From a bacterium (GTDB taxonomy: Bacteria; UBP15; UBA6099), in the NCBI GenBank assembly GCA_029564595.1, contig JAKQPS010000113.1, forward strand, positions 32,227-96,226: a stretch of DNA of 64,000 nucleotides, written 5' to 3'. Below the pieces are notes generated by a model. The model had not been told where the DNA came from, ran no database searches, and worked only from the letters and a program-made list of their open reading frames with translations. The translations under genes and the position numbers were made by a program. Positions 12,901 to 46,294 of the stretch are shown here, one piece after another. Positions within the stretch are counted from its first letter, which is position 1; each line of letters starts with the position of its first letter.

Positions 12901-13926
12901 ATGTGTTCCGAATCGCCGCATGTCAATCAACTGGACGATGAGAATCTCGAAGACCGGGAACATGAGTTTCAGGCTGAGGCCGACTGCTCCCGGCTCGACA
13001 TGTTTATTAAGGAACGCCTGACGACTCTTTCTAGGGGCCACATTCAAAGGCTGATAAAGACCGACTCCGTCTCTCTGAACGGAGTGGCGGCGAAACCTTC
13101 AAAATCCGTCCGGCCCGGCGATTGGATAAGGGTCTCCCTTCCGCCGCTTCAACCTTCGGACATTGTTCCGGAAGACATCCCGCTGGACATCATTTTCGAG
13201 GACGGCGATATAATAGTCGTCAACAAACCCAAGGGAATGACGGTTCATCCCGCGCCGAATCAATCCACCGGAACGCTTGTAAACGCCCTTCTGAAATATT
13301 GCGGCAACAGTCTTTCCGGCATAAACGGAGTGGCCCGGCCCGGTATCGTTCACAGGATAGACAAGGACACTTCCGGTTTGCTGGTGGTGGCAAAAACCGA
13401 TTTCGCGCACAACCATATCGCCGAACAGATAAAACTCAGAGAGACGACCAAGAAGTACACCGCGGTCGCGCACGGCGCGCCCTCGAAAAGTTCCGGCCGC
13501 ATCGAAACGCTCATCGCCAGAAATCCGAGAGACAGAAAAAAGATGTGCGTGGCGAAAAAGGACGGAAGGGACGCGATAACGCTATACGAGACGAAAGAAA
13601 AGTTCGGGCATTTTTCCGAGATTGACGTAAGGATTTTGACCGGGCGCACGCATCAGATACGGGTGCATCTGGCGCACATAGGATGCCCTATCGCCGGCGA
13701 CGGCGCGTACGGCGGCGGCTCTCTAAAAACGCAGGAGCTTCGCGGGGATAGACGAGCGGCTTTTCAGGACGCCCTCGACCGGCTTCAGGGTCAGGCGCTT
13801 CACGCGCGCGAGATTTCTTTCAGACATCCGAGGACCAACGAGACTGTAAGTTTTACCGCGCCGCCCGCGCCGGACATAGCGGCATTCATCAATTTTCTAA
13901 AGGAGAACGATCCTCTTGAAGTTTAA
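12901..13926 (+). CDS. rluD: RluD-family 23S rRNA pseudouridine synthase
   Basis: S4 domain followed by the catalytic motif HRIDKDTSGLLVVAKT. ATG at 12901 immediately after the lgt stop. The upstream extension in the ORF track overlaps lgt. Confidence 0.85.
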   Translation: MCSESPHVNQLDDENLEDREHEFQAEADCSRLDMFIKERLTTLSRGHIQRLIKTDSVSLNGVAAKPSKSVRPGDWIRVSLPPLQPSDIVPEDIPLDIIFEDGDIIVVNKPKGMTVHPAPNQSTGTLVNALLKYCGNSLSGINGVARPGIVHRIDKDTSGLLVVAKTDFAHNHIAEQIKLRETTKKYTAVAHGAPSKSSGRIETLIARNPRDRKKMCVAKKDGRDAITLYETKEKFGHFSEIDVRILTGRTHQIRVHLAHIGCPIAGDGAYGGGSLKTQELRGDRRAAFQDALDRLQGQALHAREISFRHPRTNETVSFTAPPAPDIAAFINFLKENDPLEV

Positions 13927-15028
13927 GATTGAAGGAACGGAAGGAGCGGCCCGCGCGGGCGCGGTCGAACTGCCGAGAGGCAGTTTCCTGACTCCGGCGT
14001 TCATGCCGGTAGGCACGCAGGCCACCGTCAAAGGCCTCTCTCCCGAAGAACTGCGCGAACTTGGTTTCAGAGTGATACTGTCGAACGCGTATCATCTGTA
14101 TCTGCGCCCCGGACACGAGCTTGTGGAATCGATGGGCGGACTCCACAAGTTCATGGCGTGGGACGGACTGGCGCTCACTGACAGCGGAGGCTATCAGATT
14201 TTCAGCCTGAAAGGGATGATAAAACTCACTGACGAGGGCGTGACGTTCAAGTCGCATCTCGACGGGTCGTCGCATTTCATCCGGCCCGAAGACAGCATGG
14301 CGATACAGAGGGCTATAGGCGCGGACATGGTCATGGCGCTGGACGAATGCCCTCCGGGCGACTCGGACAGAATAAAACTTGAGGCGGCGGTCGCTCGCAC
14401 CGCCGCATGGCTGCGTCGCTGCCGCTCCGTTTCTCTCAAATCTCACCAGACGCTTATCCCGATTATTCAGGGCGGAACGGACCGCGAGATGAGGCGCAGG
14501 TCTGCGGATTTGACTCTCGAAATGGATTTCGACGCGCACGCGCTGGGCGGCCTCAGCGTCGGGGAGGAACGCGGCGCGATGCTTGACACTGTGGAGTTCG
14601 CCGCCCCGCTCCTGCCGCATGACAAACCCAGATACCTCATGGGCGTCGGAATGCCGTCGGACATCCTAGACGCTGTGGAGCGCGGGATCGACATGTTCGA
14701 CTGCGTGCTGCCGACTAGGATGGGAAGAAACGCCGCCGCATTCACATCGCGGGGCAGGATTAATCTGCGAAACGCGGCGCACGCCCGCGACGACAGCCCG
14801 ATCGACCCCGAATGCGACGGCGCGTGCTGCCGCAATTTTTCCCGCGCGTACGTCAGGCATCTCTTTATGTCCGGCGAGATTATGGCCGCGCGGATAACCT
14901 CTTTTCACAATCTCGCTTTTTATGCTAGAATGATGGCTCTCGCCCGAAAGGCGATACTCGAAAATAGATTCGCTTCTTTCAAGCGGGATTTCGAGGCAAA
15001 GCAAAACAACGGAGGCGTTAATGAATAA
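13916..15028 (+). CDS. tgt: Queuine tRNA-ribosyltransferase
   Basis: TPAFMPVGTQATVKG, LGGLSVGE, Zn-site CxCxxC...H. tgt-yajC gene order. Confidence 0.9.
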   Translation: MKFKIEGTEGAARAGAVELPRGSFLTPAFMPVGTQATVKGLSPEELRELGFRVILSNAYHLYLRPGHELVESMGGLHKFMAWDGLALTDSGGYQIFSLKGMIKLTDEGVTFKSHLDGSSHFIRPEDSMAIQRAIGADMVMALDECPPGDSDRIKLEAAVARTAAWLRRCRSVSLKSHQTLIPIIQGGTDREMRRRSADLTLEMDFDAHALGGLSVGEERGAMLDTVEFAAPLLPHDKPRYLMGVGMPSDILDAVERGIDMFDCVLPTRMGRNAAAFTSRGRINLRNAAHARDDSPIDPECDGACCRNFSRAYVRHLFMSGEIMAARITSFHNLAFYARMMALARKAILENRFASFKRDFEAKQNNGGVNE

Positions 15029-24563: not shown

Positions 24564-27137
24564 TTAGGCGATATACTGCTCTGTGCGGGCTATCACCTCG
24601 TCCTGAATCTCCCTGCCGAGTTCGGTGAAATAAGCGCTGTATCCGCCGACTTTCACTATCAGGTCGCGGTGCGCGTCCGGGTCTTGCTGGGCTTCGCGCA
24701 TGGTTTCGGAAGACACGACGGTGGGCTGCAACTGAGCGCCGCCCATCTTGAAATATGCGCGTATGAGCGCGGCCCATTTCTTCCTCGCTTCTTGCGTTCC
24801 GCCGACGGCGGAGGGATGAAACTTCATGTTCACCGCCGCGCCTAGTATCTGCGTAAAATCAAGCGAGGCGACCGACCGCATAGCCGCAGTCACGCCATTC
24901 TTTTCGACGTTGTATGGATTGCAGCTCGCGGCGTACGGGGTCGCTGCGCGGCGTCCGTCGGGCGTGGCTATGGACAGCCTGCCGTCTATCGTGTGAGTGG
25001 TCATGCTTATCACGTACGGGACGAAGACACCGCCCCGGCTGGTCTTGTATTTGTAAGTTTCATCGAACATCGCGTTTGTCACCCGCCGCGCCAACTCGTC
25101 TGTCTCCGCGAAACCGTTCCCCCATTTTCCTTCAATTCCGGCTATCTCGCGCCGAAGGTCCTCGAGTCCGGCATAGTTCACGTTTATCGCCTCGATTATT
25201 TCGCGGAGCGCGAACTTGCGTTTTTCGAAAACGAGTTTTTTTATCACTAGAAGAGAGTCGGAAACGTTGGCGATGCTGTTAATGAAGGAAATGCCGCTGA
25301 GGTCGTACAGAGCGCCGCCGTTGACGACATCCCTGCCCTTTTCCGCGCATCCCTGCATGAACGCCGAGATCAGAGGAGCGGGAAGCATGTCGGCGAAGAC
25401 ATCGTCCTTGATATTCGACGCGTCGGCGATGAGTTTTATCTGATGCCGCGCCTGCTTGAGAAAAGCATCCTCGAAACTCTCGTAAGAGTCGAACGATTCA
25501 GGCTCGCCGGTCTTGAGTCCGACGTTTTTGATAAGGCCCATCATGGTGAGCGAGTTGCCGTTGCGCAAAGTTAGGTCGAGCAGCCGGGAAAGAAGAAGAG
25601 CCGAGGCGCTCATGCCGCCGGTCTTGCCCGGACACAGCATCTCGACGCAGCCCATCACGGCGTAGTCGCGGGCGTCAGCGTCGGAAAAACCGTGCCGCCG
25701 CATCGACTCGACATTGATATCGTCGTTGAAAAGAGAAATATTCGAGCCGCCCGTGAAAACCGCTTCCGCCGCCGCCGGAAGCAAGTCTTCAGGAGAATCC
25801 TTGTGCACGCGGAGAGAAACGTTGGTCACCGCTTTGGCTCTCGCGGCCGCTTCCAAGAACAGATAAGTCAATTCGTTTGTGCCGTCCGTCCCATCGGGTT
25901 TCACCCCGCCCACTGTGACAGGCGATGAACCGAGGAACCGGTGATAGAAATTGCTCAGCATGTTCGATTCCGGGCGTATGTTCTGGGACATTGTTTTGAG
26001 CAAAAGCTCTTCGAGCGCCGCGCGCGCTTCCTCCCGCGTTATTACTCCGGCCTCGATGTCTTTTTTGTAATAAGGATAAAATATCTGATCCATCCTGCCG
26101 AAGCTGTGGAGGTTGACCGGATGAGCAAGCTCCACCGCCGTCTTGACCGTCCACGCCGCTTGAACAGCCTGCATGAAAGTCTCCGACGGCATCAAGGGAG
26201 CGGTTTTGCAGTTTTCCAATGCGGCGCGAAGAGCGACTCTGCATTCCGGGACAAGTTCGTCTTCGAGCGCGGCTTTAACGGCGTCTGCCAGCCTGCGCGC
26301 GAAAACAATGGCGCCGTCTAGAGCCATTTCAACAGAGCGGTGAAAAGCCCGCGTTTCATCGTCCGCCGCAGCCGCGATCCTTTGCGCGGCCTCTTCCTTC
26401 ATCTTTAAAAGCCCTTTTTTTACTACCGTGTCGAAATCAATTATCACGTGCCCCTGATAAGAGGATATCGTCGAGCAGATCGACACCATCATAGTCTGCC
26501 GGGAGGTGATAGTTGGCAGCGCGAGACTGAATTCCCGCATGTCGTCGCCGAGCAGACCTGACGACATCAACCGACGGTCTACCTCTTCGACGACCGTTTT
26601 TCCCTCCCAGAACGGAAGAAGCTCGTTTACAAGAACTTTCCTGTCTTCCGGATCAATCACATATCTATTTATCTCGCGCTCGTCCATCGTTTTTATTTCA
26701 AGGTTCATGGGCTGCTGCCCGGCGGCGCGGGACGCTTTCATGTTTCGCGCGAAATCCCGCAGACCGCGTTTGCCGACAAGATACGAAAGAGCGCCGCCTA
26801 GAGACTTGAATCTGAATCTCATTATCGATCCGCGCGCAAGCTCGGTTTTAAAAACCCCGTTGAACACTCCCCGCTCAATGTCGATTGGGATGCCCATGAA
26901 ATCTTCCGTCCAGTATCCCGCGATGAGGTCTTCCGGCTCGACATGCATGTCCATGTTTTCATACACGTTCTTCATAGCGAGAGCCACGCGCTCGCCTGCG
27001 GTCAGTCCGGAGCCTTCCGTCTTCCTCCAGCTTTCGGTGTAATATTTCGCGCGCTGGATTGAAATCTTCGGAGTCTCCAGAATATACCTGTCGCGCAACT
27101 CGGCAATCCGGTTTTTGTTTTTCTCAAGAGTCAGCAT
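24564..27137 (-). CDS. Glycyl radical enzyme, PFL2/glycerol-dehydratase family
   Basis: N-terminus resembles CutC/GDH/HypD-type enzymes (RAKYYTESWRKTEG). Active-site Cys in MGCVEML. C-terminal glycyl-radical motif VKVGGYSAYF. Confidence 0.9.
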   Translation of the reverse strand: MLTLEKNKNRIAELRDRYILETPKISIQRAKYYTESWRKTEGSGLTAGERVALAMKNVYENMDMHVEPEDLIAGYWTEDFMGIPIDIERGVFNGVFKTELARGSIMRFRFKSLGGALSYLVGKRGLRDFARNMKASRAAGQQPMNLEIKTMDEREINRYVIDPEDRKVLVNELLPFWEGKTVVEEVDRRLMSSGLLGDDMREFSLALPTITSRQTMMVSICSTISSYQGHVIIDFDTVVKKGLLKMKEEAAQRIAAAADDETRAFHRSVEMALDGAIVFARRLADAVKAALEDELVPECRVALRAALENCKTAPLMPSETFMQAVQAAWTVKTAVELAHPVNLHSFGRMDQIFYPYYKKDIEAGVITREEARAALEELLLKTMSQNIRPESNMLSNFYHRFLGSSPVTVGGVKPDGTDGTNELTYLFLEAAARAKAVTNVSLRVHKDSPEDLLPAAAEAVFTGGSNISLFNDDINVESMRRHGFSDADARDYAVMGCVEMLCPGKTGGMSASALLLSRLLDLTLRNGNSLTMMGLIKNVGLKTGEPESFDSYESFEDAFLKQARHQIKLIADASNIKDDVFADMLPAPLISAFMQGCAEKGRDVVNGGALYDLSGISFINSIANVSDSLLVIKKLVFEKRKFALREIIEAINVNYAGLEDLRREIAGIEGKWGNGFAETDELARRVTNAMFDETYKYKTSRGGVFVPYVISMTTHTIDGRLSIATPDGRRAATPYAASCNPYNVEKNGVTAAMRSVASLDFTQILGAAVNMKFHPSAVGGTQEARKKWAALIRAYFKMGGAQLQPTVVSSETMREAQQDPDAHRDLIVKVGGYSAYFTELGREIQDEVIARTEQYIA

Positions 27138-34679: not shown

Positions 34680-35048
34680 TTATAGCGTCATATTATCGCT
34701 TCGTCGTTGCAAATGGTCTGTAAGTTTTTTCAGAATATTCTCCAAGCGTTCATCGCTTATTCTTCCTAAGACGCCCTCAAGAAGGGCGGCTTCGACTGTC
34801 GCTAGTTTTCCTATGCGTATCAAGGACGCAATTTTCAAACCCGACGAATTAAAATCTGAATCATCCGTCGAAATCAATTCGTCCCAATCCTTGATGCTGT
34901 GTCGAAGTTGTGAGGTAACAGCGCATATCAGCCAGTCGTCGTATGGACCGGGCAAAGACGCCAGAACGACAATTGGATGGAATTTTCCTTTGTGAAGATC
35001 GGACTGAGGAAATCTTATGAGTGAAACTATGCCGGGACTTATGTTCAT
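34680..35048 (-). CDS. MazF/PemK-family type II toxin (mRNA interferase-like)
   Basis: Pattern G.IV...FP...GK.HP.VVL......DDWLICAVTSQ is typical of the PemK/MazF fold. 4-nt overlap with the upstream small gene. Confidence 0.6.
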   Translation of the reverse strand: MNISPGIVSLIRFPQSDLHKGKFHPIVVLASLPGPYDDWLICAVTSQLRHSIKDWDELISTDDSDFNSSGLKIASLIRIGKLATVEAALLEGVLGRISDERLENILKKLTDHLQRRSDNMTL

Positions 35049-35269
35049 TTTCTTTCTTTCAGGTCATCAATAGCGTATTCAACTTCCTCGGGATTGCGCC
35101 AGAAATCAAAAGCTCCGGATTCGAGAGCAAGAATTCCCCACTTCGTTTCTCCCGCTGTTCCGGGCGCGGCGCTTTCTTTTTCAAGAGAAATGATGAACTT
35201 AAGAACAGCGCCGAGCCTTTCTTCCGTCATCCTTTCAATTTCGCTGATGACTCTATCCTTTATTCTCAC
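35045..35269 (-). CDS. Putative cognate antitoxin (74 aa)
   Basis: Small acidic protein immediately upstream of the toxin and overlapping it. Confidence 0.5.
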   Translation of the reverse strand: MRIKDRVISEIERMTEERLGAVLKFIISLEKESAAPGTAGETKWGILALESGAFDFWRNPEEVEYAIDDLKERK

Positions 35270-35532: not shown

Positions 35533-37083
35533 TTATTTCGGCATCTCGACGACGATGAATCTGTTGTAGCCTCTTCGTTCGATTACGAGAAGAATTTCAA
35601 CTGGCTCGTCGCCTTTGCGGCCCTTCGAAACGTCTTTGATAATCTCGCGCAGGTCGGAGGGCGTTTCGACTTCTTTTCTGTCGGCTTTGATGATAATGTC
35701 GCCCTGCATGATGCCGGCTTTGTCCGCCGGGCCGTTCGGCTCGACCCCCGCCACGACGACGCCTTTTTCCGTTTTCGCTTCAAGCTGCTTTGCCGTCTTC
35801 GCATCCAGCGACTGCAACTGCATTCCGAGCGAAGTCTTTGCGTCGTCTTTTTTAGGTTGCGAGGCGTCGGCGGTCTCGTCGGGCCGTTCGTCGAGTTTTA
35901 CGTTCAGTTTCACTTTTTTGCCGTCGCGCATGACGGTCACTGTCGCCTTTGCGCCTTTGCCGAGTTTCGCCACTTCTTTCTGTAGCTGTTTGACATTCTT
36001 GATGTCGATGTCGTTCAGCTTGATTATTACGTCTTCGACCTTCATGCCTGCTTTGTCAGCGGGAGCGTCGGGGATTATGTTTGTGACGATGGCGCCGTCT
36101 TTTGATTCAATCTTCAACGCGCGAGCCAACTGTTCGGTAATGTCGTCAATGTAGATGCCGAGATATCCGCGAGAAACCGTTCCTGTCTCAATAAGCTGCT
36201 CGAACACTTCGCGGGCCATGTTGATTGGGATGGCGAAGCCGATGCCGATATTGCCCGAACCGCCGCCCATAATCCCGCCGCCGTTGGAGTAGATGGCGGT
36301 GTTGACGCCGATGACCTCGCCCCGGATGTTCACGAGCGGTCCGCCGCTGTTGCCGGGATTTATGGCGGCGTCGGTCTGTAGAAAATCGTCGTAAGGCCCC
36401 TGCCCTATGACGCGCCCGCGCGCGCTGATTATCCCGGCGGTCACCGTGCTTTCCAGCCCGAACGGGTTGCCGAACGCTATGGCCCACTCGCCGATTCTAA
36501 CCTTGTCGCTGTCGCCTATCGGCGCGGCGGCAAGCTGCCTGTCCGCCTTTATCCTTATAACCGCAATGTCCGTCAACTGGTCGGCTCCGACCAGTTCTGC
36601 GTCATATTCTTTTTCGTCGCCGGGAATTTTAACTATGATTTCATCGACGTCTTTGACGACGTGGGCGTTGGTGAGGATATAGCCGTCCGACTTGATGATG
36701 AAGCCGGAACCGAGGCTGGTCTGTTTGAATTCCTGTTTCTGGTTCTGCTGCTGGCGTCTGCCGCCGAAAAACTTTTCCATCATGTCGTCGTCTTCGCCGA
36801 AGGGGTTTGAAAACCCGAAGAAAGGATGCGAGCGCATCTCGACGATTTTGGCCGTGTTGATGTTGACCATGCTCGGTTTAATAAGGTCTGCGACCCGAAC
36901 GAAATCGTTCTGGACGTCGAGAGCCGCCGCCGAGGGTTGCAAGGCTTTGCCGTCCACGCCGCCCTTTGACGCGTCCGCCGCGTTGGAAATCGGTATCAGG
37001 TCCAACCGCGCCGCAATCACAAGGCCGATCATAATCCCCATGATCAGCGTCGCCACCAATGCAATTCTCGTCTTCGTTTTCAT
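35533..37083 (-). CDS. DegP/HtrA-family serine protease with two PDZ domains
   Basis: Catalytic triad context (TNAHVV, D, GNSGGPLVN) and two PDZ domains. Start taken at MKTKTRIAL to avoid overlap with the response-regulator gene. Confidence 0.85.
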   Translation of the reverse strand: MKTKTRIALVATLIMGIMIGLVIAARLDLIPISNAADASKGGVDGKALQPSAAALDVQNDFVRVADLIKPSMVNINTAKIVEMRSHPFFGFSNPFGEDDDMMEKFFGGRRQQQNQKQEFKQTSLGSGFIIKSDGYILTNAHVVKDVDEIIVKIPGDEKEYDAELVGADQLTDIAVIRIKADRQLAAAPIGDSDKVRIGEWAIAFGNPFGLESTVTAGIISARGRVIGQGPYDDFLQTDAAINPGNSGGPLVNIRGEVIGVNTAIYSNGGGIMGGGSGNIGIGFAIPINMAREVFEQLIETGTVSRGYLGIYIDDITEQLARALKIESKDGAIVTNIIPDAPADKAGMKVEDVIIKLNDIDIKNVKQLQKEVAKLGKGAKATVTVMRDGKKVKLNVKLDERPDETADASQPKKDDAKTSLGMQLQSLDAKTAKQLEAKTEKGVVVAGVEPNGPADKAGIMQGDIIIKADRKEVETPSDLREIIKDVSKGRKGDEPVEILLVIERRGYNRFIVVEMPK

Positions 37084-37084
37084 G

Positions 37085-37477
37085 TCATTCTCCTCCGTTG
37101 CCACCGGATTCAAAGTCCGGTTCCACAATCTGCCTGACCGCGCTAATGAGCGGGTCGGTGTTCGAGCTTTTTTCCACCCAAGACGTGGCGTGGTGCGCCC
37201 TGAAATCCATCTTGAACAGCGGATAAGCCGTGTTCACAATCACCGGAGTGCCCCCGTTAAGCCTCGATATCTCCCCGATGACTTCAAGCCCGTCCTTTTC
37301 CGGCATCCCGATATCAAGAATAACAAGGTCGGGGCAATGAATCTTGGTCATTTGCAGAGCTTCCACGCCGTCCGCCGCCGTCACCACCGCATATCCCTCG
37401 CACTCGAATTCCATCTTGTACAGTTCCCTAATATCCCTGTTGTCGTCCGCAATCAAAAGTGTCGCCATTTCAATCAT
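37085..37477 (-). CDS. Single-domain response regulator (CheY-like receiver)
   Basis: LLIADDNRDIRE, phospho-acceptor D in LVILDIGMP, K in PVIVNTAY. Confidence 0.75.
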   Translation of the reverse strand: MIEMATLLIADDNRDIRELYKMEFECEGYAVVTAADGVEALQMTKIHCPDLVILDIGMPEKDGLEVIGEISRLNGGTPVIVNTAYPLFKMDFRAHHATSWVEKSSNTDPLISAVRQIVEPDFESGGNGGE

Positions 37478-37706
37478 TTCCCTTAATCTGACAGCCGCGC
37501 GGGCAGAAAGTTTCGCGCGCCGCAATCTTTTTCAGACAAATTCCCCGAACCGTCTGAAGTGTGAACGCTGTGATAGATTATAAAATCAAATCAGAAAATG
37601 TAAAATGCATCGGTCTTGCGGGCGGAGCAAGAGAGCCGTAGGAATCTCCGGATATTTAGGTTTGACACCGCCTGCGCCCTGTGCTAGATTGACTGCGAAA
37701 AGGATT

Positions 37707-37808
37707 GGAAGCTGAAATGAGCGGAACAACAATGCAACCGGATAATAGGCGCGCATTTTGGAGCGGCTATTATTATTATTTCTGGGGTCACCCCACGGTT
37801 GCGCGGTT
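37707..37808 (+). promoter_or_regulatory. 33-codon leader ORF MSGTTMQPDNRRAFWSGYYYYFWGHPTVARLSR (aromatic-codon run)
   Basis: Read directly from the sequence. Not in the ORF track because it is under 60 aa. Shine-Dalgarno-like GGAAG/AGGA upstream, and a terminator follows. Confidence 0.5.
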
Positions 37809-37832
37809 GAGCCGCTGAGATTCAGCGCCCGA

Positions 37833-37867
37833 CCGAAAACACAACCGCGGGGCGGCATCAAACCCCG
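37833..37867 (+). terminator. Intrinsic terminator/attenuator hairpin aaccgcgggg-N10-ccccgcggtt followed by UUUUUU
   Basis: 10-bp GC-rich stem plus T-run. Lies between the leader ORF and the DAHP synthase start. Confidence 0.6.
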
Positions 37868-37936
37868 CGGTTTTTTCGTTTGTAAAAAAAAACGCGGGGA
37901 GAACGACTCCGTCCCGGGCGCAAATGGAGGCGCGAA

Positions 37937-38962
37937 ATGATTATCATTCTTTCTCACAAGGCAACGGACAACAACAAGAATTCGGTGATCGACCGGCTCA
38001 AAAAAATGGGCTACAAAGTCGATATCTCAGAAGGCAAAGAGCGTACCCTTATCGGCGCGGTCGGCTCGAACGTGGAGAACAAGAACGAGGTCATGGCGCA
38101 ATTCATGTCTTTGCCCTTCGTGGAAAACGTCGTGCCGATTCTCAAGCCGTACAAAATGGTGAGCCGGGAAATAAGGGAGCGTTCCGTTATCAAGGTGAGG
38201 GACGGGATAGAAATCGGCGGAAAAGAGATAATGCTGATGGCGGGGCCGTGCGCGGTGGAAGGCGAAGCGCTGATGATAGAGTGCGCTCACATGCTCAAAG
38301 CCGCCGGGGTAAAAATCCTCAGGGGCGGCGCGTACAAACCCCGCACTTCCCCGTACAGCTTTCAGGGCTACGAGGAGAAGGGATTGAAGATGCTGGCAAA
38401 AGCGAGCGAGGAAACCGGGCTGGCTATTATCACCGAAGTCATTCAGGGGCGGGACGTGAAAAAAGTCGCCAACTACGCTGACATACTGCAAATCGGGGCG
38501 CGCAACATGCAGAACTTTAATCTGCTCAAGGAGTGCGGCAAAGTGGATAAACCGGTGCTGCTGAAGCGCGGGTTGTCGGCGACAATCGAGGAATGGCTGC
38601 TGGCCGCCGAATACATCGTCAAAGAAGGCAACCCGAAGGTGATGCTGTGCGAACGCGGGATAAGGACTTTCGAGACTTATACGAGGAACACGCTGGATTT
38701 GAACGCGGTGGCGGCGGCGAAATCGCTCACGCATCTGCCGGTGGTCGCCGATCCGAGCCATGGAACGGGACGCTGGGAGCTTGTGTCGCCTATGGCAAAA
38801 GCCTCCGTCGCGGCGGGCGCGGACGCTCTTATAATTGAAGTCCACCCCCGCCCGGAAGAGGCTTTCAGCGACGGACAGCAGACGCTTAACTTCAAACATT
38901 TCAAACAGATGAAAAAAGAGTTGAAACCTGTGGCGGCGGCCGTCGGAAGAACGCTAAAATAG
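37937..38962 (+). CDS. 3-deoxy-7-phosphoheptulonate (DAHP) synthase, class I-beta with N-terminal regulatory domain
   Basis: Roughly 75-aa N-terminal ferredoxin-like/ACT-like domain, then the KDO8PS/DAHPS I-beta barrel ([25 protein letters not shown]). Confidence 0.85.
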
Positions 38963-38991
38963 GTTTGCTTTCGCGGGCTAACCGGCATTAT

Positions 38992-39215
38992 CCCGGATTC
39001 GTCGGTAGAGCCGACGAATCCTGTGCGATTTAGATAGCGGCGAACTGATTCGTTGCCGCCACATTCTTAGTTCAGTAGGGTCGCGGTTTCCGCGCCCAAT
39101 GACTACGACAATTTGGGGCGGGGCAACCCCGCCCCTACTTCAGAAATGCGCGTTGAGCTTTGCATTTCATCTGATCTGAATAATCGCTCCAGAATCATAA
39201 TGAAGGATTCAGGAT
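38992..39215 (+). repeat. Copy A of the structured intergenic repeat family (about 224 nt)
   Basis: Hairpins gattcgtcgg-tagag-ccgacgaatc, ggcgcgg-ttt-ccgcgcc, ggggcgggg-caa-ccccgcccc, gaatc-N9-gattc. Homologous to 53704-53926. Confidence 0.75.
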
Positions 39216-39231
39216 TTCCCACCAATGCGGG

Positions 39232-40374
39232 CTAAAACGCGAACTCGGCGTATTCGTATTCGCAAGGGTGTCCGTAAAGGACTTTGAATTTTTTCGACGC
39301 CGGATAGAGTATCACGGACAATGTGGTGCAGAAATAATCGCTGTGCCTGCACACCGTGTTGTCCGAGCCGATGCCGTCCGCGCCGTGGTCTGAAAAAATC
39401 CTGATAAGGTCTTCCTCAGAAAACTTCTGTTGCTTGGAGAGAAGTTCCTCAAGCCGGGCTAGCCTGACTTCGGAGGACTCTCTGCATCTCTTGCCGCGAA
39501 GAGCCGGCACGTTGGTCCTCGAATATACGGCGGACGGCGGAACGTCAACTTTCGCGAGCCTTTCAGTCAGATAGTGGTTCGTGTGGGCAATGACGCCTTC
39601 CTTCGGCTTACGCTCATCCACCATAGTCTTCGAGATTTCGACCGAGCGCAGGTCGCCCTGAGCATCGCAAATCATCCAAAGCGCGCACCCGTTATACTTG
39701 CTTTTTCTCAGAAACACTATCGCCTCGGCTGTTGTTTTGCACTTCTCTAGAGTGTCCTGAAGAGCCATAGTCATGGGAACCGAATTTGAGGAGGCGTCCT
39801 GCCCGTAGCCGTAGTTGTAAGTAATGGAAAGACCATGCTCGTTAATAGAGTCGTGGCTGCCCGCCAGAGGGGCGTTAGTCGCTGCTAGAACGCGGTATCC
39901 GTCGCTCGGAACGTCCATGCGGACAAGATGTGTGGGGGAGAAAAATTCGGGATAGTCGAAATTTTTGATAATAATCGGCTCGCCGGATGCGGACCTTTCA
40001 GAGGCGACGGCCGCCGCGCTGCACGCGCCGCCTATAAAATGAGTCTTTGCCATCTCTATTTCCATCGACTGAAGGAAAATCATGTGCTTCATACCTTCGC
40101 CCGCGCCCTCTGCTATGCCTTCGAGCCGGGCGTGCTGACGAGGCGAATCCTTCTTGATTCCCGCCGCGAAATCTCCCCACATTTTCATTTTTGCCAGTTT
40201 GAGGAACAGCCCGGTCGGAAGAAAGAAAGGCTTGATGGCTTTTAACTCAGGAGAAGTCGCCAACATTGAATGGGAGTGTTTAATGATGTCCACGCAAGCG
40301 CGCCCCTGCTGGGCGCCCATTTCTTTATGCGAGCCTTTGAATATTTTTATTTGTATGTCCGACTTCTTTCTCAT
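39232..40374 (-). CDS. Peptidase C45 / acyl-CoA:6-aminopenicillanic-acid acyltransferase-family protein
   Basis: Ntn-hydrolase-like layout with a candidate nucleophile Cys in FIGGACSAAAV. Confidence 0.6.
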   Translation of the reverse strand: MRKKSDIQIKIFKGSHKEMGAQQGRACVDIIKHSHSMLATSPELKAIKPFFLPTGLFLKLAKMKMWGDFAAGIKKDSPRQHARLEGIAEGAGEGMKHMIFLQSMEIEMAKTHFIGGACSAAAVASERSASGEPIIIKNFDYPEFFSPTHLVRMDVPSDGYRVLAATNAPLAGSHDSINEHGLSITYNYGYGQDASSNSVPMTMALQDTLEKCKTTAEAIVFLRKSKYNGCALWMICDAQGDLRSVEISKTMVDERKPKEGVIAHTNHYLTERLAKVDVPPSAVYSRTNVPALRGKRCRESSEVRLARLEELLSKQQKFSEEDLIRIFSDHGADGIGSDNTVCRHSDYFCTTLSVILYPASKKFKVLYGHPCEYEYAEFAF

Positions 40375-45688: not shown

Positions 45689-46294
45689 TCAATCGTTCAT
45701 CAGAATAAGCCTTGAGAACTTCGCCGGGGCGCGATTCTTGGCTCGCCCCACTGCCTTTTTGCCTTCGAGAAATCCTATTTCCAACGCCTTCATATTTAAC
45801 GCTTCGGTTCCTTTCGGGGAACGCGAAAGAACCGCCGCTTTAATGGCGTTTTTCGACACCACTCCGGTCGCTTCCGCAAGAGCGCCGAGCGACAGGGAGT
45901 TCATCGCTTGCAAAGAACCGGCTTTCTCCCTTGCAAGCGAAGTCATCGGAATCTCGTATGCCGTCGAGATCGGTATCTGAGAGCATAAATCCGAATTGAC
46001 GATAAGCGTTCCCGTCTCTTTAAGGTCCATAAAATACTCGTCTAGAGAAGCCTGATTGTAGCACATCAGAATATCAAGATTCTTCGCTTTCGGGTAATCG
46101 ATGTAACTGTCGCTGATGACCACCTCGGCCTTGCAGTTGCCGCCTCTGGCCTCCGGCCCGTAACTCTGTGTCTGGCACACGTATCGCCCGTCGTGAATCC
46201 CGGCCGCTTCAGCAAGAATTATCGAGGCCAGAATGACCCCTTGGCCTCCTGAACCGGCTATCCTTATTTTTATTCTCTCTTTTTCTATTTTCAT
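45689..46294 (-). CDS. korC: 2-oxoacid:ferredoxin oxidoreductase gamma subunit
   Basis: Gamma-subunit family (IAGSGGQGVILAS). Confidence 0.8.
   Translation of the reverse strand: MKIEKERIKIRIAGSGGQGVILASIILAEAAGIHDGRYVCQTQSYGPEARGGNCKAEVVISDSYIDYPKAKNLDILMCYNQASLDEYFMDLKETGTLIVNSDLCSQIPISTAYEIPMTSLAREKAGSLQAMNSLSLGALAEATGVVSKNAIKAAVLSRSPKGTEALNMKALEIGFLEGKKAVGRAKNRAPAKFSRLILMND

Follow-up and report, generated by a model that had tools for sequence, protein, structure and literature searches.

A candidate leader-peptide attenuator with a tyrosine-rich codon cluster upstream of a class I-beta DAHP synthase gene in an uncultured bacterial lineage

How does a bacterium from a deep lineage without cultured members adjust the entry into its aromatic amino acid pathway? 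The question is raised by a stretch of 64,000 nucleotides (nt) of UBP15 DNA (contig JAKQPS010000113.1; "the window" below means this whole 64-kb stretch, and all coordinates are positions in it), where a gene for class I-beta 3-deoxy-D-arabino-heptulosonate 7-phosphate synthase (DAHPS) is preceded by a short open reading frame (ORF) with a dense run of aromatic codons and, between the two, by an intrinsic terminator. The initial annotation, made from the letters of the DNA, took this layout for a ribosome-stalling attenuator, and the conserved aromatic codons and mutually exclusive folds described below support it: the element is very probably a classical ribosome-mediated (leader-peptide) transcription attenuator of a monocistronic DAHPS gene. 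Leader-peptide attenuation of aromatic genes is textbook knowledge for trpL, pheL and pheST.

Anatomy of the leader region and its conservation

The leader unit lies on the plus strand and begins with a sigma-70-type promoter at 37662-37690, which in a promoter scan had 10 of 12 consensus matches (-35 box TTGACA at 37662-37667, a 17-nt spacer and a TG-extended -10 box TAGATT at 37685-37690) and which puts the predicted transcript start near 37697, about 20 nt 5' of the leader ATG. A purine-rich, Shine-Dalgarno (SD)-like AAGGATTGGAAG can be read at 37700-37711, 5 nt ahead of that ATG, in agreement with the plausible SD reported initially. The leader ORF itself occupies 37717-37818 (ATG at 37717, TGA at 37816-37818), and its 33 codons encode MSGTTMQPDNRRAFWSGYYYYFWGHPTVARLSR. 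The initial annotation had identified the right ORF and the strong terminator 3' of it, but both lie further downstream than it had placed them: the ORF by 10 nt (37707-37808 was given), the terminator at 37843-37876 rather than 37833-37867. The latter consists of a 10-bp stem (37843-37852 with 37863-37872), a 10-nt loop and a tract of six U residues (37871-37876), with a folding energy of -19.2 kcal/mol. Promoter, SD, ORF, aromatic cluster, terminator and gene follow one another in the order and with the spacing that an attenuator requires. On the other strand, facing the divergent response-regulator gene at 37085-37525, there is a near-consensus promoter at 37577-37604 (TTTACA, 16 nt, TATAAT; 11 of 12 matches), so that the 400-nt intergenic region upstream of the DAHPS gene holds two back-to-back promoters.

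The regulatory codon cluster comprises codons 14-23 (37756-37785), which read TTT TGG, two non-aromatic codons, four TAT, TTC and TGG, i.e. FWSGYYYYFW. Eight of these ten residues are aromatic (two Phe, two Trp, four Tyr); the initial annotation had counted seven, although its own listing adds up to eight. No other span of ten residues in the six frames of the 64 kb has eight aromatics, nor is there another YYYY run, and given the 7.1% aromatic content of the window's genes, the probability of at least eight in ten is 2.4e-8 per position. Only one other span in the six frames reaches seven aromatic residues in ten, YPYFYSLFFYF at 46259-46290 (plus strand, frame 2); it lies antisense to a gene for the gamma subunit of pyruvate:ferredoxin oxidoreductase (45689-46294, minus strand) and is taken as chance.

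The regulated gene (37937-38962, plus strand in the ORF map) encodes a protein of 341 amino acids with an N-terminal ferredoxin-like regulatory domain. Its assignment to class I-beta DAHPS, as in the initial annotation, follows from matches to Pfam (DAHP_synth_1, PF00793, 8.6e-80; DAHP_snth_FXD, PF18152, 1.2e-17) and NCBIfam (PRK08673, NF006421, 493 bits where the cut-off is 335; TIGR01361 DAHP_synth_Bsub, 403 bits). Sixty nt separate the end of the terminator from the start of the gene, whose own SD (GGAGG, 37926-37930, read from the sequence 6 nt ahead of the ATG) lies 50 nt past the terminator. Since the next gene (39232-40374, minus strand) is convergent, the DAHPS gene is monocistronic, and since the upstream neighbour, the response-regulator gene, is divergent and has its own promoter, the terminator belongs to neither of the neighbouring genes.

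To see how far this unit is conserved, DAHPS orthologues were collected by a protein-database search, graded from 100% down to 62% identity, and their contigs were retrieved through exact-sequence look-ups. Among twelve sequences looked up, ten distinct lineages yielded upstream DNA, and P0005 and P0007 gave none. When GTDB genomes and JGI metagenomes were scanned for the DAHPS protein, the matches listed reached at most 61% identity. Nine of the ten lineages, with DAHPS proteins 65-96% identical to that of the window, keep the leader unit together with its aromatic codon run, as the initial proposal implied. The closest leader, MSGTTRQPDNRRAFWSGYYYYFGGHPTVARLRR, belongs to locus L161 (also L162; DAHPS 96% identical); the others, each with part of its leader peptide, are L163 (80%, ..GDFMFYYYYTKSRCERWLR), L164 (79%, ..IYAGWHGYYYFIPPRVVRLRS), L166 (75%, ..EGFYGYYFYFYYQPKTPGGAAS), L167 (72%, ..GNWYAYYFMHESRIVEPIS), L168 (69%, ..NGWYFYFYRIPREEALSHA), L169 (70%, ..RIYFGYWYFNPPRVWDASASV), L170 (66%, ..LFAFSAYYFTWSNAGPRLWMRLSA) and L171 (65%, ..SSFCNYYFAWQDTDPRLWPPVR). 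The aromatic clusters of the orthologues include FMFYYYY, YAGWHGYYYF, FYGYYFYFYY, WYAYYF, WYFYFY, YFGYWYF, FAFSAYYFTW and FCNYYFAW, and TATTAT is invariant in alignment A1.

The rest of the unit recurs as well. All nine leader-bearing loci have a -35 box TTGACA or TTGACG followed after 17-18 nt by a -10 box, and an SD-like GGAG, GAGG or AAGG no more than about 10 nt ahead of the leader start (weak in L169). The ORF has 33-36 codons, the gap from its stop to the terminator is 20-27 nt, and the terminator takes the form AACCGCGGGG..CCCCGCGGU(5-9), with six to nine U in most lineages and five in L163. Across ten sequences, 99% of the cells in the terminator helix are paired, with two compensatory pairs; L170 and L171 show compensatory changes. 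Over their N-terminal two-thirds the leader peptides are unrelated among lineages, while the aromatic run is kept, and an approximate P-R-(V/L)-(W/V) found after it in several lineages is the antiterminator arm CCCCGCGGTTGTGG translated in frame. An internal start at Met6 (37732), prompted by likeness to the leaders of two more distant loci (L082 and L089, MQPxR.F), was considered for the window and rejected because L161 has Arg at this position, yet keeps the ATG equivalent to 37717.

Upstream neighbours differ from lineage to lineage (a response regulator, an ArsP_1 permease, a PilZ protein and others), and the leader unit therefore travels with the DAHPS gene. The family also spans considerable depth, since the queuine tRNA-ribosyltransferase (Tgt) encoded on the L171 contig is only 58% identical to that of the window. 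Its limits can be seen in the 160 more distant DAHPS loci (L001-L160), in which neither the terminator motif of the family (searched as a regular expression) nor its nhmmer profile was found; the profile detected no second copy in the window either.

Alternative folds and the position of the ribosome

The leader RNA can be divided into segments, all on the plus strand, that compete for one another. Region 1 (37719-37752) is the 5' strand of a large leader hairpin in the minimum free energy (MFE) folds and, in ribosome-free RNA, the partner of the Tyr codons and of region 2; for example, its GCAACCGG at 37733-37740 pairs with 37795-37802. Region 2 (37784-37801), the 5' arm of the antiterminator, GGGGUCACCCCACGGUUG, lies within the leader ORF at codons 23-29; it corresponds to the segment (ccccacggttg...) that had been noticed at the outset as able to pair with the 5' arm of the terminator. 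A middle hairpin (37803-37834) that spans the leader stop codon is enclosed by the antiterminator helix in the folds. Region 3 (37842-37860) is made up of the terminator 5' arm AACCGCGGGG (37843-37852) with its flank and loop, and is the common partner of regions 2 and 4, the last being the terminator 3' arm at 37863-37872.

As a whole, the leader RNA (37697-37940, 244 nt) folds at -103.3 kcal/mol, with z = -5.4 relative to dinucleotide shuffles. The mutually exclusive terminator and antiterminator folds that an attenuator calls for do exist. In ribosome-free RNA folded up to the U-tract, the terminator is present and 37702-37752 is paired with 37795-37834 as well as with the Tyr codons. When the RNA under and 5' of a ribosome stalled at the Tyr codons is excluded, GGGGUCACCCCACGGUUG (37784-37801) pairs instead with CAACCGCGGGGCGGCAUCA (37842-37860). 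In the fold model the two conformers are close in energy (-41.5 kcal/mol for the antiterminator versus -44.5 for the terminator), and the antiterminator is able to form ahead of transcription of the terminator 3' arm. The duplex of regions 2 and 3 in the window has an energy of -19.1 kcal/mol (z = -3.0 against shuffles).

From this arrangement we infer the following course of events. Transcription would begin about 20 nt ahead of the leader ORF. With an ample supply of charged tRNA-Tyr, tRNA-Phe and tRNA-Trp, the ribosome would pass codons 14-23 and reach the stop codon at 37816, where it would cover or sterically block region 2; the terminator hairpin (37843-37872 plus U6) could then form, and RNA polymerase would stop before the DAHPS gene. 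When aromatic aminoacyl-tRNA is scarce, the ribosome would stall within the cluster (at F14, W15 or Y18-Y21), region 2, just past its leading edge, would remain free and pair with the emerging 37842-37860, and with the terminator thus blocked the DAHPS gene would be transcribed. Without translation, region 1 would hold region 2 and termination would be the default. This scheme resembles that of E. coli pheL-pheA and trpL-trpEDCBA in its four segments (1:2, 2:3 and 3:4), in the proposed release of segment 2 by a stall and in the predicted default termination of untranslated RNA. The E. coli pheL and trpL leaders have 14-15 codons, carry their regulatory codons inside segment 1 and sense one amino acid each. 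The present leader differs from them in design: it has 33 codons, its cluster sits at the tip of the 1:2 hairpin, after segment 1 and before segment 2, and it carries codons for three amino acids.

Several comparisons among lineages bear on the antiterminator. In nine non-redundant lineages, the 36 nt that lie 3' of the aromatic cluster were paired with the lineage's own terminator 5' flank and arm, giving duplexes of -17.6 to -31.1 kcal/mol (z from -2.0 to -6.1 against shuffles). Own pairing was stronger than cross-lineage pairing (means of -22.7 versus -18.6; p = 2e-4 in a permutation test in which row and column effects cancel), and because this comparison needs no alignment, it indicates, at the level of sequence, that the antiterminator strand and the terminator 5' strand co-evolve. 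On a MAFFT alignment, 75% of the cells of the antiterminator helix are paired, versus 38-57% when the helix is slid along, while RNAalifold recovers only the terminator from that alignment. All ten sequences retain the terminator in ribosome-free MFE folds, and in most, the window among them, the antiterminator arm is taken up by a segment further upstream.

We then modelled the effect of ribosome position: for each codon, a stretch of RNA starting 15 nt beyond the A-site codon and ending at the U-tract was folded, and the equilibrium probability of the terminator helix was recorded. An assumption of the model is that no pairing takes place between RNA on the two sides of the ribosome. In the window this probability was 0.73 with the ribosome at codons 12-18, fell to 0.01 at Tyr19, and rose to 0.32 at Tyr20 and 0.84 at Tyr21; from Phe22 to the stop it was 0.97. 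In L164, L169, L170 and L171 it stayed below 0.25 up to the aromatic cluster and was mostly above 0.9 beyond it, and L168 had its minimum, 0.53, at Tyr21. In eight of the nine lineages (L166 is flat) the rise to about 0.97 coincides, to within one or two codons, with the 3' end of the cluster, and this is the placement expected if, as modelled, the cluster codons are the last at which a stalled ribosome would leave segment 2 free. An earlier criterion, that the terminator 5' arm be paired before the 3' arm is made, was dropped since in several lineages it also held without a ribosome, and the equilibrium probability as a function of ribosome position took its place.

Not all results point the same way, and the following weigh against a stalling attenuator. 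One lineage, L165 (DAHPS 79% identical), has no leader, promoter or terminator in front of its DAHPS gene (L165 2080-2504); there the end of an ArsP_1 permease gene and the start of the DAHPS gene overlap, and the attenuator was therefore lost or replaced in that lineage. On the MAFFT alignment, column covariation of the antiterminator does not reach significance, as 75 of 500 shuffles reach the observed score, a result due to indels in this helix between lineages. In L163, L166 and L167, the equilibrium probability of the terminator is at least 0.82 at every ribosome position, so any read-through there would be kinetic. The folding results also vary with what is assumed: when only a 33-nt ribosome footprint is masked and upstream RNA is left free to pair with RNA downstream of it, segment 1 of the window (GCAACCGG, 37733-37740) recaptures segment 2 for stalls at W15 to W23, and the antiterminator forms for a stall at F14 only; seven of the eight other lineages are robust at every early codon under this mask, and L169 is mixed. 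Stalling at Tyr can therefore be modelled in the window only with steric exclusion or with a second ribosome in the queue, for which there is room between the leader start codon and the stalled one. Finally, with a single ribosome at the stop codon and otherwise unconstrained RNA, the terminator 5' arm still pairs upstream in several lineages.

What the leader would sense, and rival explanations

Every leader peptide in the family has at least two Tyr, one Phe and one Trp codons, and the clusters are Tyr-rich and contain Phe. Such a Tyr-dominant mixture with Phe and Trp suggests, as far as codon content goes, a response to all three aromatic amino acids, and it suits an enzyme that feeds all three branches of the pathway. 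The choice among synonymous codons is also uneven. Over the nine leaders, Tyr is encoded by UAU in 29 of 32 cases, versus 17 of 71 in the adjoining DAHPS genes, which prefer UAC (54 of 71); the Fisher p-value is 1.4e-10, to be read with the fact that the nine leaders are related and their counts not independent, though the bias persists where the flanks have diverged. For Phe, UUU makes up 13 of 20 leader codons versus 14 of 55 in the same genes (p = 0.003), and among the genes of the window UAU accounts for 46% of Tyr codons. This preference for U-ending codons fits selection acting on the speed at which leader codons would be decoded, and the CUA codons of the Salmonella leu leader are a precedent for the use of a less favoured codon. 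The window also holds a tgt gene (13916-15028), whose product modifies tRNA-Tyr; its presence is probably coincidental to the UAU bias.

One may also consider explanations other than stalling at scarce aminoacyl-tRNA. The one that survives best, though we think it quite unlikely, is that a trans-acting factor, such as a TRAP-like protein, an uncharged tRNA as in T-boxes or a riboswitch ligand, operates a genuine switch, and that the ORF is incidental. Alternative pairings alone do not show what selects between them, and the three lineages in which the terminator dominates at equilibrium wherever the ribosome stands would suit such a factor. However, no match to any Rfam family, the leader families Trp_leader, His_leader, Leu_leader and Thr_leader included, was found at the gathering threshold in the whole window, and in the leader region (37000-38500) the best match was Leu_leader, with 15.2 bits against a gathering score of 50 (E = 5.7), and there was no match to a T-box or riboswitch at E <= 10. 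In addition, the reading frame, start codon, SD, length of 33-36 codons and in-frame aromatic codons persist amid nucleotides that diverge, the biased choice of codons in the cluster is a signature of translation, and the alignment contains no conserved unpaired motif or repeated triplet array that would hint at a site for a protein or ligand.

Still less probable is that the ORF encodes a functional, aromatic-rich small peptide with its own terminator and that the DAHPS gene is transcribed separately. A gene caller did annotate small genes in this position, one of 39 residues about 105 nt upstream of the DAHPS gene of P0007 and one of 62 residues just upstream of that of L166. Nevertheless, conservation of the peptides is confined to the aromatic run and to residues that RNA pairing imposes, the promoter scan detected no promoter-like site between the terminator and the DAHPS start (37877-37936), and the unit always stands directly upstream of DAHPS, whatever the other neighbours.

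Equally improbable, in our estimate, is a TnaC-type arrest of the nascent peptide that senses a free aromatic amino acid, or a control of DAHPS translation rather than transcription. Nascent chains rich in aromatic residues are able to interact with the exit tunnel of the ribosome, and there is an RNA segment that could be taken as a sign of control beyond the terminator. It consists of nine A residues and CGCGGGG (37884-37899, plus strand), lies directly 3' of the terminator and is complementary to the terminator 3' arm and U-tract; in the full-length MFE fold it pairs with 37863-37869 in place of the terminator. It could act only after read-through, and it is kept only in L161 (96%), with a looser version beside the DAHPS SD in L167. 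However, arrest peptides need conserved residues, whereas here the aromatic run alone is kept. The hairpin, with six to nine U after it in most lineages (five in L163), is an intrinsic terminator of canonical form, the DAHPS SD stands outside the conserved pairings, and a biosynthetic gene induced by an excess of its end-product would follow the wrong logic.

Chance, i.e. an accidental ORF beside an ordinary terminator, is effectively refuted by conservation: short ORFs and hairpins are indeed common, and a terminator scan of 37400-39400 gave 4 sites versus 2.9 expected, but the aromatic cluster, unique in the 64 kb, has a probability of about 2e-8 per position, the layout recurs in nine diverged lineages, and aromatic clusters are also enriched, relative to the reverse strand, upstream of distant DAHPS genes (see below).

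Other leaders, neighbouring genes and significance

Short ORFs with clusters of aromatic codons were also sought in the regions upstream of 155 I-beta DAHPS genes that are more distant (50-61% identity). At least five aromatic residues in eight codons were found in 10 of the 155 regions, compared with 3 of 155 in a reverse-strand control, and at least six in eight in five regions, compared with none on the reverse strand. An aromatic ORF followed by a strong terminator stands in front of DAHPS in ten loci, namely eight of the ten at five or more in eight, plus L089 and L143 at four in eight. A common terminator, GCCTCAGGAC.., is found in L062 (2719-2960) and L077 (1995-2240) of the Tepidisphaeraceae and in L133 (2790-2965). 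L082 (1102-1245) and L089 (2807-2975) make up one pair of aromatic leader ORFs with terminators and L109 (2837-2980) and L143 (77-235) another; the remaining ones are L067 (2863-2990, Calditrichaceae; MLNNLWTNFYYYYYQQARSA), L099 (170-280) and L126 (1866-2040). These ten leaders fall into at least three small sequence families plus singletons, and in six of them the antiterminator complementarity is significant by a crude test. None matches the present family by regular expression or nhmmer. Because they are unrelated to it in sequence, aromatic leaders before I-beta DAHPS genes seem to have arisen several times.

A broader reading can be put forward tentatively, and we hold it with well under even confidence: that the element is a three-input sensor of Tyr, Phe and Trp tRNA charging, that its U-ending codons tune the response through wobble, possibly involving queuosine in tRNA-Tyr, and that it is one of several I-beta DAHPS leaders that evolved independently in uncultured phyla, those of Tepidisphaeraceae and Calditrichaceae among them. 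If so, a single switch would integrate aromatic tRNA charging at the entry point of a shared pathway, and attenuation would be a common, uncatalogued control of shikimate entry outside model organisms.

Leaders with mixed codons for several end-products of a shared pathway are known from the E. coli thr and ilvGMEDA operons. The present leader resembles these in being multivalent, here inferred from codon content only, and differs from them in pathway and in its unrelated sequence. Nearer in function is Corynebacterium glutamicum, whose DAHPS is of the class I-alpha type, while the window's enzyme is I-beta with a ferredoxin-like domain. According to the summaries in PMC11802643 and PMC4046766 of the work of Neshat et al. 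(2014), the C. glutamicum aroR leader, with Phe-Tyr-Phe, lies upstream of aroF and its attenuation has been demonstrated, and the first of these states that aroR responds to Phe and not to Tyr. As summarized there, the two systems share an aromatic-codon leader before a DAHPS gene, a stall (here a predicted one) that raises transcription and the same enzymatic step. By the same description they differ in that aroR has Phe-Tyr-Phe only, whereas the present clusters are of 6-10 codons, Tyr-dominated and always accompanied by Trp, in another phylum. A further comparison is with uORFC-13-1 (Brewer et al. 2021, PMC8632094), a predicted upstream ORF (uORF) with promoter, ribosome-binding site (RBS) and start codon directly upstream of an intrinsic terminator, which was found exclusively before the DAHPS gene aroF in Acholeplasma and some environmental sequences and whose signal is a U-run encoding at least one Phe. 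The present family is like it in having a uORF with promoter, RBS and a start codon, as well as a terminator before a DAHPS gene, and, compared by description, unlike it in its Tyr-rich cluster, its conserved CCGCGG-based terminator and its hosts. The leader is thus a new family of a well-known kind of regulator, outside every Rfam family, and will not surprise a specialist.

As to the surroundings, no further aromatic-pathway gene was found in the 64-kb window. A PemK/MazF-like toxin gene (34680-35269, minus strand, 121 amino acids, Pfam 2.8e-09) overlaps by 4 nt an upstream ORF of 74 amino acids that has no Pfam match, and the two are likely a type II toxin-antitoxin pair. The window also encodes a glycyl-radical enzyme (24564-27137) and subunits of pyruvate:ferredoxin oxidoreductase, and these suggest an anaerobic organism whose deep lineage has been poorly sampled; the named relatives of its Tgt (Bacillota, Nitrospinota) are at most 55% identical.

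The attenuator changes no principle. It is a second conserved leader-peptide case before a DAHPS gene, after that of Acholeplasma, and the first Tyr-dominated one among those found here. Such leaders are cheap annotation markers for which amino acids an uncultured organism makes and senses, and the compact 180-nt element could serve as a part in an aromatic amino acid biosensor. The ferredoxin-like domain of the Thermotoga DAHPS binds Tyr and Phe, so that with an allosteric domain in the enzyme and an attenuator in front of its gene, the same end-products would control entry into the pathway at two levels. For a deep bacterial lineage without cultured members, these results add a well-supported family of regulatory RNAs, kept in nine diverged lineages, and indicate that classical attenuation operates there.

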